Assembly: GCA_017472065.1 (NCBI GenBank)
Contig: JAFURB010000008.1
Coordinates: 107 to 64,106, forward strand
Source: Alphaproteobacteria bacterium
GTDB taxonomy: Bacteria; Pseudomonadota; Alphaproteobacteria; Rs-D84
Reading direction: 5' to 3'
DNA: 64,000 bases
Shown: piece by piece, positions 33,375 through 40,099 of the stretch
Position numbering within the stretch: position 1 is the first letter of the stretch
Layout of the letters: each line of letters starts with the position of its first letter
The notes under the pieces: model-generated
The model's database searches: none
What the model was told of the DNA's origin: nothing
Seen by the model: the letters and a program-made list of their open reading frames with translations, nothing else
Position numbers and translations under genes: made by a program

Positions 33375-35603
33375 TTAACTACCTTGTTGGACTTGGTCGC
33401 ATTTCAATGTGTCTTCATTGAATACATAACCTGTATTGCATACGCAGGCACCATTGACATTGGTTGCGTTCGTTTGACATGTACATGCCGTTCCACCCCA
33501 TGTACCACCCGTGGTTACGCACAGGTATGCTTTGGATTCTGTGGCCGCGGCACTGTTAATCATGTTCTGAATCCATGTTTTCATGCCAGACAAAGTGGTA
33601 CCGGCACTGGCATCGCCATTAACGGACATGCACGTCATTATTTCTGCACGGCATGCATTAACCGCAACATTATTCGCAGTTCCAGATGTTTTTGTGTCAT
33701 CATAACCGTTCTGGGTTATACATGATGACACCTCGGCAATACAGCTTTCTGCGTGATCCGCAATTATTTCATCCTGGGCCGCCTTGATCTGAATCATCGT
33801 ACGACGCAGATACTCTTTGACAACTTCGTTGGCTGGATTATATTCACCGTCATCATCGTATGTGTAATCTTGACACTTGTTCAAGACAGACATGCACATA
33901 CCATGGTTTTTACCATCCAGGTTGTAGCCAATCTTATTTGCCAAATATTTTGACATTACCATATCTGTTGTTATTGGCATTTCATCCGTAATAGTCGCAT
34001 CAATATAACTATTTAGGGTATAATCTGCTGTACACCATGCATTTTTACTATCAGCGTTCCATGTGGCATACAAGCCTGTTGTTGGACAAAATGCGGGACC
34101 TGTTGCATTTGCCCCCTCAGATATCGCCTGGCCTGGCATAGAACCGATTACAACCTCGCCATTTACAATATATTTGCCCGATGGATCCAGACAGTTTTCA
34201 TAGTCTGTTCCACATACAAAGTCATCCTGCATACATGAATCCAATGCGTTTACACAACCACGCAGGTCATATGAATTCTTTTGCTGGGCAACCATTAAAC
34301 GCGCACGTTGTAATACAGATTGTGCATTGCGTACCGTCGATTTCATTTGATCGTTGGCATCGGTCAATGCGCGTTCGTATGCAACACACTGTTTATCGAT
34401 TTCCAAATCATATGAATTTGTAATAACAGCAATGTCAACACCCTGGGCCTGGCAATCTGTTAAAACCGCAACCTTGCAACGCGATGCCGCAGTCTTGTAC
34501 AATTCTTCGCCGCGCTGATTAGAAATGCTGGATGTGTTGGCCGTTGATGTCCCAAACAAACTGGATAAATCAAAACCAGTGCTGGCAATATTAAAGTCCA
34601 ACAAACCAGATAAATCCATGCTGATACCAGATGACATTTCACTGGATGATGCAGTACCAGATTTAACATCGACAATCATGTTTTTAATCTTGTCCAAATC
34701 ATTTTTGATTTGTGAACTGTCACTGGAACCCTGCATTGTGATTTCAGCCTCGGTCTGGGCGAACAAGGTTTCGATTTCATCACCGGTCAAACCGATATAC
34801 TGAATCTTTTGGGCAACATCTTGTAAACTTTCGGTTGCTTCTTTCAACGCCTCTTCGGTTTTGGCATAGTTTTTAACATTTTTCGAACAAGAACAACGTC
34901 CCTGGTTATCATCCAGAACATTACAGAAGTTATCCATACATTCTGTATATTGTGCCTTGCAGAAATCTGTGATTTGCGCCAATTCATCCATTGATTTGGT
35001 CATTTCTTCGGCACTGACCGTGGCGGTTGTTGTTGCAGTTGTCGAATTTGCAACACGGACAGCCGGCGCACGACTGGCAACGGATGCAGTACTGGCCCCG
35101 ACGGTACGAACACCAACACGACCGGTGTACAATGGTGTATTAACCGTGTCTGTTTGAACAATAGATGCACGGGCGGTTGTTGCCGGACTGGCCGAACGGG
35201 CCGTACGACGCGATGAAACATTTTGTGTATTTGTTGCACGCGTTGATGCCGCACGTGATGCCGTACCACGTGTCATCGCATTGCGTGTTTGGGAAATATT
35301 AGCCGCCGCACGTGACGCAACCGCACGCGATGGCGCCGTTGCAGATGCACGCGTTGTCGTTTTCACAGCCGGCACAGAACGTGTCGCACGCGATGATGAA
35401 CGTGTTGATTTGCGAACAACTGTATTTGGGGCCGCAACAGAATTTTCGTTTTCTTCCATACCAATTTCGTCATCAACGACAACATCGTCGTCAAACATTT
35501 CGGCATCCGAATATTCAATAACATCTTCGTAGAAAACGGGTGCAACCTCAGCAAATGCGGGCATTACCAGCAGTCCACTTAATACAGCAATAAATCTTTT
35601 CAT
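33375..35603 (-). CDS. secreted cysteine-rich protein, paralog A (742 aa)
   Basis: Signal peptide MKRFIAVLSGLLVMPAFA. Acidic stretch, then a basic R/S/T/A low-complexity tract (aa ~64-185). A Cys-rich region starts at FCKAQYTECMDNFCNVLDDNQGRCSCS. The C-terminus has an EGF-like pattern. Paralogous to 37764..39956. Confidence 0.8.
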   Translation of the reverse strand: MKRFIAVLSGLLVMPAFAEVAPVFYEDVIEYSDAEMFDDDVVVDDEIGMEENENSVAAPNTVVRKSTRSSSRATRSVPAVKTTTRASATAPSRAVASRAAANISQTRNAMTRGTASRAASTRATNTQNVSSRRTARSASPATTARASIVQTDTVNTPLYTGRVGVRTVGASTASVASRAPAVRVANSTTATTTATVSAEEMTKSMDELAQITDFCKAQYTECMDNFCNVLDDNQGRCSCSKNVKNYAKTEEALKEATESLQDVAQKIQYIGLTGDEIETLFAQTEAEITMQGSSDSSQIKNDLDKIKNMIVDVKSGTASSSEMSSGISMDLSGLLDFNIASTGFDLSSLFGTSTANTSSISNQRGEELYKTAASRCKVAVLTDCQAQGVDIAVITNSYDLEIDKQCVAYERALTDANDQMKSTVRNAQSVLQRARLMVAQQKNSYDLRGCVNALDSCMQDDFVCGTDYENCLDPSGKYIVNGEVVIGSMPGQAISEGANATGPAFCPTTGLYATWNADSKNAWCTADYTLNSYIDATITDEMPITTDMVMSKYLANKIGYNLDGKNHGMCMSVLNKCQDYTYDDDGEYNPANEVVKEYLRRTMIQIKAAQDEIIADHAESCIAEVSSCITQNGYDDTKTSGTANNVAVNACRAEIMTCMSVNGDASAGTTLSGMKTWIQNMINSAAATESKAYLCVTTGGTWGGTACTCQTNATNVNGACVCNTGYVFNEDTLKCDQVQQGS

Positions 35604-35719
35604 GGCTTTTTCTTCCCTTCTCTTAGGGATATTTTATCACATAGTCACAATTCAAACAAGCGAAAAATAGACAAAAATTTTTAATTTCTGAACAAATTCC
35701 TAATTCATTAAAAAATATA

Positions 35720-37763: not shown

Positions 37764-39956
37764 TTATTTATCGGCCTGTGCAGCCCGCATGTTTTTCCAT
37801 TCTGTTTCCAGCCATGTACGGATGGCAACTTCGTCTTTCTCGTCAACACCAATTGCATCCCGCAAACAATATTCACGCAACGCTGCGGAATCAGTATTAT
37901 CATTTTCGCCTTTATCACCATATAATGTACCGGCGGTTATGGCATCGCCAATTGCCTTTAACGCTTCGGCGGACGACCCCGTACCGTTCAAGATTTCGTT
38001 CAATGTCACGATATTGCGACATGTGTTCGTTGTGTAATCCTGGGTATTTTTACACTTGGCACTGTCAGCCTTGTCGATGACGGCCTGGAACTGGGCCATT
38101 GATGGCGAACAAACCATTTCTTCGTAGCATGATGGAACGTTCGCAACCTGGGAACAGTATGTACGGATACGCGACACGGTCCAAACAGTGCTGTTACCTG
38201 GGCCATGGGAATCCAATTGTGCATCATAGCATTCATACAGTTCACTTATACAATTATCGAAATTCGTGCTGGCCGCGATTGCCGCAGAACGAATTGATTC
38301 TTTTTCATTGGTTGCAAATTCCAAACGCTTTTGTTGCAGGGCCTGTTGAGCGGCAACCTTTTGATAACCAATATTCTGTGCAGTTTGGCGCAATTGTTCA
38401 CCATACGCATCACAGTCTGCATTGGCATCCAACGCATATTTTTGCATAATACTGCGACGTGCATCAGCAACCGGCCCACGCAGGGATGCATATGGATCAC
38501 CCGATGCAGATGAATACCCAAAACATGTCGCAGAATTTGATGCCGTGTAATTAGTATTAGCCTTAACAAAATTCAATTCATATGTACCGGTATTGTTTAC
38601 GGTAATCTGGCTGTTATAATTATATGGACACTGTGATTGGCCGTTACCGCATTTGCGACCACCCGATGGTGGTTGGCCACATGCCTCATAAATTCCGTTA
38701 AAGCAAGAATCCAAAACGCGCGAACATACATTATTATGTGCATATTCAAATAATTCATACCCCCATGTTTCCGCCAAAGAATCCTTTAGATTATCACGAT
38801 CGGCCATAGAACCTGTGATACCGGCAAGGTCACCAACGACACTGGAAATCCCTTCGAATGCGGACAGCAAATCATCTGTATCGTCTTTCAAAATTGTGAC
38901 GGTTTGATCTTTGGCCTTGGCCCATGCTTGCAAGGATGCCAAGATGTCAGAACTGGACCCATCTATATTTTTTACATCAAACCCAAATGAATTACCTGTG
39001 CTATCACAATAACTGGGCTTTTCACACGCAGATGTGCTGGGATAAATGCCATGCTGGTTACACCATTCAACCGCCTCGTCTGAACTTGCGCCATATTGAT
39101 CGGTAACTTCCTTGTACGATACGCAGTTCATAACCTTTTCAGCATCGGTTAACTGGAACGCTTCGGATACATCTTTGCCCTTGTTCGCGATTAACAATGC
39201 CAATTCCCCAGAAACCTTTATCAATTCTTCGTTTGCGGTTTCCAGTTGGGCTTCGGCTTCGGCAAACGCCTTGACACGACCGGCGCATGCACAACGGCGC
39301 TGGGCCGCGTTACGCGCAGTACAAATTTCGTCCATACATGTATAGTACGATTCCATACAGTTGTTAAACGCATCTGTAGAAATTAAACCAGTACTGGAAT
39401 CAATAATATTCGAATAGTTACCAGTGTACAGTTTGCTGGTCAAATATGTTAGGTTACCAGTTGTAGTCTTGGACCCGCGGATTGCGGCACCCTGGTGCGA
39501 AACGCGTGCCACATCAACATTGCGTGCACGAACAGTGCGACCCGAACGGTTGGCGGTTGTACGCGTTGCCGCCGTCGTTGCCGTGCGCGCAACAACATTA
39601 CGAGACGCAACACCGCGCGATGACGCAGTGCCCATATTCGCCGTTGTTGTGCGGGTTGTTGTACGCGTTGCAACACCACGCGATGGGGTCGCACGCGATG
39701 CACCCGTCGCATTTGTTCCGCGTGAAACAGTTGTTGTCGCCGTATTGGAACGTGGACTGGCCCGGCCAGAACGCGCCGCATTACCAGCACGCATGGCCTG
39801 GGGCGACAATGCCGCACCCGCATTTGCCGGCGCAATTGGATCCGCCAATGCGGCACGCATCGACAATAATGTCGAACATGTTAAAAACGCACCACCCAGC
39901 AAAAAGATTGTGCCAACAGCATTTTTGCAACAATTTTTGAATTTATGACTTGTCAT
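37764..39956 (-). CDS. secreted cysteine-rich protein, paralog B (730 aa)
   Basis: Start set at the second of two close Mets (GGGGGAG RBS 7 nt upstream). Signal peptide ...LLSMRAALA. Basic R/S/T/A tract (aa ~55-165). Cys-rich region starts at NCMESYYTCMDEICTARNAAQRRCACAGRVKAF, aligning with paralog A. Confidence 0.8.
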   Translation of the reverse strand: MTSHKFKNCCKNAVGTIFLLGGAFLTCSTLLSMRAALADPIAPANAGAALSPQAMRAGNAARSGRASPRSNTATTTVSRGTNATGASRATPSRGVATRTTTRTTTANMGTASSRGVASRNVVARTATTAATRTTANRSGRTVRARNVDVARVSHQGAAIRGSKTTTGNLTYLTSKLYTGNYSNIIDSSTGLISTDAFNNCMESYYTCMDEICTARNAAQRRCACAGRVKAFAEAEAQLETANEELIKVSGELALLIANKGKDVSEAFQLTDAEKVMNCVSYKEVTDQYGASSDEAVEWCNQHGIYPSTSACEKPSYCDSTGNSFGFDVKNIDGSSSDILASLQAWAKAKDQTVTILKDDTDDLLSAFEGISSVVGDLAGITGSMADRDNLKDSLAETWGYELFEYAHNNVCSRVLDSCFNGIYEACGQPPSGGRKCGNGQSQCPYNYNSQITVNNTGTYELNFVKANTNYTASNSATCFGYSSASGDPYASLRGPVADARRSIMQKYALDANADCDAYGEQLRQTAQNIGYQKVAAQQALQQKRLEFATNEKESIRSAAIAASTNFDNCISELYECYDAQLDSHGPGNSTVWTVSRIRTYCSQVANVPSCYEEMVCSPSMAQFQAVIDKADSAKCKNTQDYTTNTCRNIVTLNEILNGTGSSAEALKAIGDAITAGTLYGDKGENDNTDSAALREYCLRDAIGVDEKDEVAIRTWLETEWKNMRAAQADK

Positions 39957-40099
39957 ATTCATACTCCCCCGCGCCTGGGCGTCCCCAGGAATCCGCACTT
40001 TTTTATGCATTTATGCCACGCACAATGCATACATACTTTGTATTATTATAACATTTTTGTGGGGGGCTGTAAACATCAAAACACGCAAAATGCAAACGA

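Follow-up and report, generated by a model that had tools for sequence, protein, structure and literature searches.

The stretch of DNA analysed here, called the window below (64,000 nt of contig JAFURB010000008.1), carries two genes for large, exported, cysteine-rich proteins, designated A and B, and between them a gene for a lipoprotein of the phospholipase D (PLD) superfamily. Transcription of the PLD gene diverges from that of A and converges on that of B, and the strands of the three genes agree with this arrangement, which a preliminary description of the same DNA had already given. Homologous loci and relatives are labelled L with a number, and homologous proteins P with a number. On the comparisons set out below, A and B are true paralogues, with homology extending beyond the cysteine module that they share, and belong to a family restricted to uncultured gut Alphaproteobacteria (Candidatus Enterousia, order Rs-D84) and undescribed in all libraries searched. 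The function that we infer for them, tentatively and with somewhat less than even confidence, is that of an envelope-anchored, disulfide-stapled surface stalk with a variable partner-binding head. The genes and the regions between them are as follows.

33375..35603, minus strand: gene A, a member of the A-type family; 742 aa, 26 Cys, open reading frame intact.
35604..35719: A-PLD divergent intergenic region, conserved at the nucleotide level in other genomes.
35720..37375, plus strand: gene for the PLD-superfamily lipoprotein; 551 aa from the ATG.
37376..37763: PLD-B spacer of 388 bp, with two GC hairpins and an imperfect palindrome.
37764..39956, minus strand: gene B, a member of the B-type family; 730 aa from the ATG at 39956, in an open reading frame that extends to 40010.

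The start of B was placed at 39956 because this ATG encodes the Met where B homologues begin. The parts of the two proteins, in order from each N-terminus, are the following.

35550..35603, minus strand: signal peptide of A, residues 1-18, MKRFIAVLSGLLVMPAFA, with an A-F-A cleavage motif; read from the sequence and almost invariant in the A family.
35439..35549, minus strand: acidic N-terminal block of mature A, residues 19-55, EVAPVFYEDVIEYSDAEMFDDD..., seen in the sequence.
35019..35438, minus strand: polybasic R/S/T/A tract of A, residues 56-195, recognised by composition and predicted disordered.
35121-35132, minus strand: LYTG of A, residues 158-161, within the tract.
34179..35018, minus strand: conserved helical core of A, residues 196-475, with long, putatively Cys-stapled helices; column identity 70-95%, and 99% between strains.
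34887..34961, minus strand: five-Cys module of A, CKAQYTECMDNFCNVLDDNQGRCSC, residues 215-239, opening the first long helix.
33378..34178, minus strand: variable C-terminal cassette of A, residues 476-742, recognised by divergence between strains.
39843..39956, minus strand: long signal peptide of B, MTSHKFKNCCKNAVGTIFLLGGAFLTCSTLLSMRAALA, with cleavage before DPIAP, read from the sequence.
39411..39836, minus strand: polybasic R/S/T/A tract of B, recognised by composition, with invariant Arg positions.
39420-39431, minus strand: LYTG of B, residues 194-197, within the tract.
39285..39359, minus strand: five-Cys module of B, CMESYYTCMDEICTARNAAQRRCAC, residues 218-242, the motif being located in the sequence.
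38850..39152, minus strand: locally variable patch of B, residues ~287-387, with 83-89% nucleotide identity to the same-species contig L087, against ~99% around it.

Both reading frames are intact and, by inspection, begin with the n-region, h-region and small-x-small cleavage motif of Sec export: MKR-FIAVLSGLLVM-PAFA before E in A, with a mature start EV, and ...KNAVG-TIFLLGGAFLTCSTLL-SMRAALA before D in B, with the end LLSMRAALA before DP. The N-termini are almost invariant across the A and B families, and positions A40, D41, P42, A44 and P45 around the cleavage site are invariant in the B family. Mature A starts with the acidic block, which is missing from B and in which E19, V20, P22, Y25 and E30 are invariant. 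The polybasic tract is 140-180 aa long in A and B and nearly Lys-free; residues 56-210 of A hold 19 R, 32 A, 29 T and 22 S, the tract of B is similar, and within the window such a tract is found in A and B only. In A it had a predicted local distance difference test score (pLDDT) of ~30 in a first structural model, and particular Arg positions never change. Both proteins contain the module C-x3-Y-x2-C-M-D-x2-C-x8-R-C-x-C, all five Cys being invariant or nearly so among 88 A-like sequences, and C-x6-C pairs recur in both. The two Sec-signal reading frames, the basic tract, the shared module and repeated C-x6-8-C pairs had all been reported in the preliminary description, which held on each of these points. 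It had further placed LYTG after the tract in both proteins; this tetrapeptide is indeed present in both, and 231 of 240 sequences from the families close to A and B keep it, but it is not family-wide. Tried as family-defining motifs, LYTG and an SRxVP[ST]-like motif both rose above shuffled controls, yet they were found in only 14/129 and 31/129 full-length representatives of the wider family, respectively, and were rejected in that role. The C-terminal cassette of A comprises an alpha/beta subdomain, which is hypervariable, a hairpin of helices bearing C-x6-C pairs and a tail rich in Cys (33393-33527), where one C-x2-GGTW-type bead is followed by an EGF-like Cys pattern. This tail is EGF-like by Cys spacing alone, its matches to the Pfam EGF models (cEGF E 0.047, EGF E 0.1, FXa_inhibition E 0.033) all lying below the cut-offs.

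The paralogy of A and B, which had been proposed from the letters, is borne out by BLASTP (E 1e-10), by hhalign of 24-sequence profiles (98.2% probability over 82 columns) and by hhalign of deeper profiles of 88 A-like and 27 B-like sequences (99.7%, E 3.5e-25, 364 columns). The deeper alignment covers the tract, the module and the helical region up to the C-x6-C-x6-C block. It also corrects the register of a later C-x3-LDSC block that had been taken as shared: VCSRVLDSC of B aligns with RCKVAVLTDC of A, and GCVNALDSC of A with NCISELYEC of B, with a ~110-aa insertion in B between them, so that the two LDSC stretches had been paired out of register. The statement that the proteins fit no known family stood up to searches of Pfam (best E 0.11 or worse), NCBIfam (SMC alone, 14.9 bits against a 729-bit cut-off), PHROGs and PADLOC (no matches) and, with the A and B family profiles, of PDB sequences by hmmsearch (best E 0.48).

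The size of the family was estimated by searching 1.84 billion representative proteins with a 110-aa profile of the module, which gave 444 clusters (50% identity) at E <=0.001 and 235 at E <=1e-10. The statistics on representatives refer to 150 listed of the 444 clusters, with subsets of 132 and 129 (full-length) for composition and motifs. In all 150 listed, 130-310 aa precede the module, layout and tract composition are constant, and lengths reach 2338 aa, the shortest listed representatives being partial sequences. A signal-peptide-like N-terminus was seen in 114 of the 129, and the pre-module region (132 representatives) has a median length of 210 aa, with 11% Arg, 1.3% Lys, 3.9% Asp+Glu, 46% Ser+Thr+Ala and a median net charge of +14. 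A-like sequences account for 127 of the 150 listed and have a common core of ~480-540 aa, down to ~32% identity, and B-like sequences form a second branch (23 of the 150 listed). Homologous clusters at 90% identity number 1256 for A and 1195 for B; the two families are about equally abundant, and every named cluster among these is a "hypothetical protein" from Alphaproteobacteria metagenome-assembled genomes (MAGs). A distant member, P0352 (NCBI MCL2629297.1), is labelled "ATP-grasp domain-containing protein" at NCBI. That label looks spurious, and A's own ATP-grasp match is sub-threshold (E 0.11, 12.6 bits against a 27-bit cut-off).

Homologues, which the preliminary description had suggested looking for in related genomes, were found widely, with 377 stretches encoding the module in GTDB species genomes. 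The best 80 of these 377, from which the neighbourhood counts below are taken, all come from Candidatus Enterousia, "Alphaproteobacteria bacterium" or "uncultured Rickettsiales" MAGs, and their samples, where titled, come from the guts of ruminants or other animals or belong to the Hadza set. The distant named members are also Alphaproteobacteria or Rickettsiales MAGs. The family is a core component across this lineage and not an accessory islet. Enterousia (order Rs-D84) is widely found in the guts of humans, ruminants, horses and chickens, with genomes of 0.75-1.0 Mb that are devoid of a tricarboxylic acid cycle, respiratory chain, flagella, standard transporters and glycolytic steps, and a partner-dependent lifestyle has been proposed for it (PMC12306168). 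In so small a genome, several paralogues of 700-2300 aa from one exported family are unlikely to be incidental.

A first AlphaFold model of A, built on a shallow 24-sequence alignment, was poor (pLDDT 56) and its Foldseek search uninformative, while a second, of residues 196-690 with 88 diverse sequences, had a pLDDT of 85.5 and a predicted template modelling score of 0.71. In the core numbering of this model, to which 195 is added for full-length positions, long helices are predicted at 3-32, 48-75, 79-95, 101-116, 171-191, 196-245 and 252-263 and further at 398-436, 447-467 and 476-490, and an alpha/beta subdomain at ~280-395 includes the hypervariable stretch. A Gly/Ser/hydrophobic loop, residues 316-363 (nt 34515-34658; 121-158 in core numbering), is strongly conserved and unstructured in the model. 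The best Foldseek matches of the pLDDT 85.5 model (E 1.2 in PDB, 0.49 in BFVD, with a query-normalised template modelling (TM) score of at most 0.16) were only generic long helical bundles, and the predicted fold of A appears to be without a known relative in these two libraries. Eighteen Cys are invariant or nearly so among the 88 A-like sequences. C215 and C384 were lost together in one sequence or lineage, and C506 and C524 co-occur in only 4 of the 88; since Cys are gained and lost in pairs, as expected of disulfide partners, they are probably such partners rather than ligands of a metal cluster. By simple arithmetic, the residue sums of the C-x6-C pairs fit staples between antiparallel helices (450+577 = 457+570; 621+658 = 628+651; 215+384 is close to 222+376), and the putative disulfide map that we infer includes C215-C384, C222-C376, C450-C577, C457-C570, C464-C471, C621-C658 and C628-C651.

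The strength of selection differs along these genes. Against four orthologues, dN/dS (the ratio of nonsynonymous to synonymous substitution rates) was 0.04-0.07 in the A core, 0.03-0.05 in PLD, 0.19-0.27 in the A tract and 0.10-0.14 in B, values that are approximate since dS is near saturation. Such low ratios, 0.04-0.14 in the structured parts, indicate functional genes and not pseudogenes, a possibility that the preliminary description had held against its own reading. The window and L087 share 99.1% identity over PPDK-PTA, PLD, K1-IMP and the 5' 1440 nt of A; over the remaining ~800 nt at the 3' end of A (33378-34178, ~265 codons) identity is 57-81%, with indels. Similarly, P0002 and P0004 match A at 99% in tract and core, at 45-49% over residues 481-560 and at 61% over residues 561-680, and have no tail, and P0003, from a more distant genome (tract 68% identical to A), is closer in its C-terminal segments (60%, 73% and 64%). 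P0001 is 98% identical to A overall, and its differences are nearly confined to residues 517-540, including an 8-aa indel. At residues 481-560, alignment columns are 41-52% identical, compared with 70-95% for the core, and the variable part keeps a recognisable scaffold (56-73% identity over residues 561-680). Because these mosaic identities conflict with the relatedness of the strains, they point to recombinational exchange, and the alignments indicate that the C-terminal cassette of A has been exchanged, with a breakpoint near codon 475. Tandem A-A duplicates lie beside PLD in L024, L025, L032, L033, L065, L070 and L073. Identity between tandem copies is 86-93% for the core, 59-65% for the C-terminal part and 40-46% for the tract; such copies could be a reservoir for the exchange of cassettes.

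The occurrence of divergent, recombined C-terminal alleles in strains that are otherwise 99% identical is the strongest argument for an exposed, interacting head. Tails beyond the core also differ widely within the family: in long members, ~30-aa beads of the type C-x2-GGTW-x-G-x2-C-x-C are strung on Pro/Glu/Gln linkers, C-terminal extensions reach 1600 aa, and a scan of long members for fused domains gave one Listeria-Bacteroides repeat in one member as its sole match. These extensions and the surface repeat support an exposed C-terminal part. Both lines of evidence weigh against another role that we regard as rather unlikely, that of a periplasmic envelope scaffold belonging to a minimal envelope toolkit, with a tract binding peptidoglycan or inner-leaflet acidic lipids and stapled rods acting, in the manner of Lpp or TolA, as spacers or tethers between outer membrane and cell wall. 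Swapped hypervariable alleles are hard to explain for an internal protein, and Cys-rich beads, Pro-rich linkers and Listeria-Bacteroides repeats are typical of extracellular ones. The neighbourhoods of B are moreover not conserved overall, but some of them do favour a scaffold: B-like genes lie beside cell-wall and lipopolysaccharide (LPS) genes in L083 (near PBP1a, MraY, FtsW, MurG, PagL and LptD), next to a LysM neighbour in L085 and, in the distant MAG L086, in tandem with an A-like gene directly upstream of PBP1a. A scaffold would also accord with the enzyme-like slow rate of the core, with the similar abundance of A-type and B-type sequences, which hints that these are near-universal core genes, and with the failure to find an outer-membrane translocation signal.

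With regard to gene order, an A homologue stands head-to-head with PLD in 68 of the 80 species-level loci, and no other gene of the window is conserved beside the pair, the flanks being variable; B never lies within 10 kb of A in these 80 loci. The conserved unit is the A-PLD pair and not a three-gene trio. In different genomes the same flanking genes occur on either side of the pair, which indicates that it inverts as a unit. The intergenic DNA between A and PLD is 70-100% identical by blastn in more than 20 loci, most strongly at 35696-35733. Since the head-to-head order has been kept through repeated rearrangements, co-regulation and joint action of the two genes may be supposed.

The PLD gene itself carries the following features.

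36323-36367 and 37058-37102, plus strand: HKD motifs HNKLFIVDNVAYITG and HSKTMVFDDNISWIG, both intact as H-x-K-x4-D-x6-G.
35831-35842, plus strand: lipobox LIGC, residues 38-41, in ...VSWCILCLPLIGC, before TTVPTS.

Its product matches Pfam PLDc_2 in two stretches (E 1.7e-34, 118.9 bits against a 27-bit cut-off) and PLDc (35.9 bits), and a lipobox of the type [LVI][ASTVI][GAS]C follows a hydrophobic stretch, so the middle gene had rightly been called a PLD lipoprotein. The lipobox motif is also found in PLD orthologues, for example MNILKKVSMWILCLPLIGC in L001. Compared with such orthologues, the reading frame in the window species has ~22 extra N-terminal codons (35720-35785), which sit between the conserved ATG and the lipoprotein signal; the TTG at 35786, preceded by AAGGA, may be the true start and would give the canonical lipoprotein signal MAIIKKVSWCILCLPLIGC. 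With two PLDc_2 domains and two intact HKD motifs, the protein shares the hallmarks of the two-HKD PLD/cardiolipin-synthase superfamily, from which it differs by its lipoprotein signal and by sub-cut-off equivalog scores. Cardiolipin synthase was indeed rejected as an equivalog assignment (TIGR04265, 99 against 290 bits; ClsB, 74.5 against 281 bits).

The association with a lipid hydrolase raises another explanation, which we consider improbable: A would be the secreted, membrane-active partner of PLD, either a saposin-like lipid presenter or an alpha-helical membrane-inserting toxin, its Arg tract docking on acidic phospholipids of host or prey and exposing lipids to PLD for damage or harvest. 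The pair in 68 of 80 genomes, moving as a unit, would be in line with this, as would a PLD with both HKD motifs and a lipoprotein signal, helical bundles with nested (partly inferred) Cys pairs, a conserved unstructured loop (316-363) that could refold on a membrane and a bacterium without many biosynthetic pathways (PMC12306168). However, B-type proteins and a third type described below have the same architecture and no link to PLD, no long hydrophobic hairpin is present in A, and Foldseek gave no similarity to saposin, ClyA-type or Tc-type proteins above noise (E 5-9; TM <=0.17 in either normalisation for ClyA and Tc).

The order B-PLD-A was found in the window and in the same-species contig L087 only, and in both of them the gene downstream of A is PTA (PTA_PTB). 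In the close relative L081 the order is IMP-APH-K1-B-aaRS-L21-L27-(third paralogue)-PTA-orf149-PPDK, the third paralogue being 37% identical to A. In the window, aaRS-L21-L27 lie at 54299-56401, ~16 kb away (12411-14569 in L081), and A, PLD and the spacer take the place of the third paralogue. By this comparison of maps, the B-PLD-A order arose by rearrangement relative to the L081-type order. The breakpoints of the rearrangement coincide with family genes. Just past PPDK in L081 (21237-22169) lies a 1025-aa autotransporter with faint Chlamydia-type Pmp repeats, where the window has RmuC. A search of the window with three hidden Markov models found no third copy of the family.

The preliminary description had regarded the three genes as a small secreted-factor islet bounded by near-identical terminators, and on both counts the data are against it. 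The hairpins concerned are these.

37376-37399 and 37738-37761: two hairpin copies, AAATCCCGCC-N4-GGCGGGATTT, at the 3' ends of PLD and B.
33353..33370, minus strand: terminator-like hairpin 3' of A, ATCCCCCGTTTGGGGGAT then a T run, unlike the hairpins of PLD and B.

The AAATCCCGCC-N4-GGCGGGATTT hairpin has just two copies, 362 bp apart and both within the PLD-B spacer, where they terminate the two convergent genes, PLD and B; they are internal to the block, and the hairpin 3' of A is a different one. A self-contained, possibly horizontally acquired islet A-PLD-B between matching terminators is therefore largely refuted, and we hold it to be very improbable. The three genes are contiguous in the window genome and in the same-species contig, and relative to L081 the A-PLD-spacer segment does stand where other genes are, but the block has a GC content that is ordinary for the window, nearly all genomes of the genus carry A-PLD with no B close by (68 of 80 loci with the pair), and all three genes are under strong, core-gene-like purifying selection. 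A repeated or mobile element was likewise considered for the hairpin and rejected, the sequence being present in 5 of 84 loci only, at unrelated sites, as a generic terminator stem would be. The spacer between the hairpins forms an imperfect 237-nt palindrome (37449-37682, 67.5% self-complementary) and holds the short tandem repeat caaagttcaaagtgcaaagttcaaagtgcaa; parts of it recur 3' of PLD in L002 and L003, and 37500-37650 is ~60% identical between strains that otherwise share 99%. The spacer gave no Rfam match.

From a mechanistic point of view, a stalk with a variable head would work as follows. After Sec export, conserved C-x6-C pairs on facing helices would form disulfides, and the rigid bundle would constitute the stalk. 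The polybasic tract would hold the protein electrostatically on an anionic component of the envelope, for which LPS, peptidoglycan or acidic phospholipid is a guess. The C-terminal head and tail would point outward and contact a partner, which might be a cell of the host, a different microbe, mucus or an antagonist (a phage or an antibody, for example). A and PLD would be co-regulated and act together at the interface between envelope and partner membrane, for example in attachment combined with phospholipid remodelling or harvesting, and the B-type and third-type proteins would act without a link to PLD.

Several observations weigh against such a stalk and head. No outer-membrane route was recognised in A or B, be it a beta-barrel, a lipobox or a known secretion motif, and DsbA/DsbB were not found in 1.4 Mb (the window and 88 loci, a small and biased sample searched with E. 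coli sequences and a CxxC regular expression). The formation of 9-13 disulfides would be hard to account for in an organism reported to be without a respiratory chain. A core dN/dS of 0.04 would also suit an envelope scaffold with a housekeeping role, two distant lineages have B-like genes close to PBP1a or to genes for the cell wall, and the conserved adjacency of A and PLD is no proof of a physical or functional interaction.

A bolder extension of the stalk-and-head reading is, in our opinion, a long shot: this new-fold class would be the main contact apparatus of the respiration-less Rs-D84/Enterousia, the recombining head would set partner specificity, and A would be the subunit that targets a surface PLD, or presents lipids to it, so that lipids of the partner's membrane are harvested or remodelled. 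If this were true, a disulfide-rich exoproteome without a quinone-linked respiratory chain would imply an unconventional route of oxidative folding. The family comprises the most obvious candidate molecules for attachment to, or exploitation of, the suspected partner of Enterousia; it offers a handle on finding that partner, a probable new fold and a test case for disulfide-rich proteins in an anaerobe without a respiratory chain.

Other genes of the window were also recorded. Two type IV secretion system (T4SS) products are encoded there, a VirB9/CagX-like protein with a C-terminal SPOR domain (4637-6160) and a VirB10/TrbI-like protein (6174-8600), and a T4SS of Rickettsiales style fits a partner-associated lifestyle. 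Four tandem genes on the plus strand (44899-50083; 423, 395, 478 and 429 aa), with hydrophobic N-termini and no Pfam match, are conserved and collinear in L081 and L087 and could, by analogy with Rickettsiales, be candidate VirB6-like paralogues. On the minus strand, 40100-40843 and 41142-41921 encode paralogous proteins of ~250 aa, ~35% mutually identical, on either side of a tRNA-Glu; one has a weak match to the APH phosphotransferases and the other no Pfam match, and the pair is kept upstream of B in L081 and L087. Between PTA and PPDK, 31879-32334 (minus strand) encodes a 151-aa protein with 10 Cys, without signal peptide or Pfam match, which holds the same position in L081 (58% identity) and L087. 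A tRNA-Cys with anticodon ACA, predicted by ARAGORN at 12491-12573 (minus strand) inside the open reading frame 11847-13553, had no Rfam call at the gathering threshold and is probably a false positive.

Among known systems, the following were examined and rejected for A and B. A polymorphic toxin or contact-dependent inhibition-like locus would not fit, as the variable part keeps a homologous scaffold and the next gene encodes a phosphotransacetylase, with no downstream immunity gene. Pore-forming toxins of the ClyA/Hbl/Nhe or Tc kinds were matched by Foldseek at noise level (ClyA E 8.2, TM 0.10 / 0.17; Tc E 5.5-8.9), and a passenger of an autotransporter or two-partner secretion (TPS) system was dismissed in the absence of a Pfam Autotransporter or TPS match and of a barrel in the model.

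Looser likenesses are more instructive. The chlamydial OmcB, which with OmcA belongs to the outer membrane complex, is an exported, Cys-rich and beta-rich protein whose basic N-terminal segment binds host heparan sulfate. Like OmcB, A and B are exported, with ~3.5-4.5% Cys and a basic N-terminal segment, in a host-dependent Gram-negative with a reduced genome, and Enterousia has a Pmp-like autotransporter too, in the relative L081. By contrast, A and B have no sequence homology to OmcB and no Pfam Chlam_OMP6 or DUF11 match, the model of A is alpha-helical, the basic region is a stretch of 140-180 aa of R/S/T/A and not a short motif, and the disulfides are putative. The trypanosome surface proteins of the ISG65, HpHbR and VSG-like kinds, the sole thematic entries in the Foldseek noise, are likewise long, disulfide-stabilised helical bundles with membrane-distal variable parts, but these matches are not significant (E 3.9-7.8, TM <=0.31), and the organisms, topology and anchoring (glycosylphosphatidylinositol against a polybasic tract) differ. 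Saposin-like proteins have helices stapled by nested disulfides, as may be the case in A, whose gene is linked to that of a lipid hydrolase; the likeness is one of concept only, with no Pfam SapB or Foldseek match, a Cys spacing of C-x6-C in A and a protein ~10 times larger. Type IV pilins, Opa proteins, phage tail fibres and polymorphic toxins combine, as A does, a conserved N-terminal part with a recombining, hypervariable C-terminal part, and some genomes hold tandem copies with divergent heads; homology is lacking, and the variable part of A retains a common scaffold. Taken together, the A and B proteins most resemble, in function, the known kinds of variable, Cys-rich surface proteins, while their sequence family and, as far as the model allows, their fold appear to be new.

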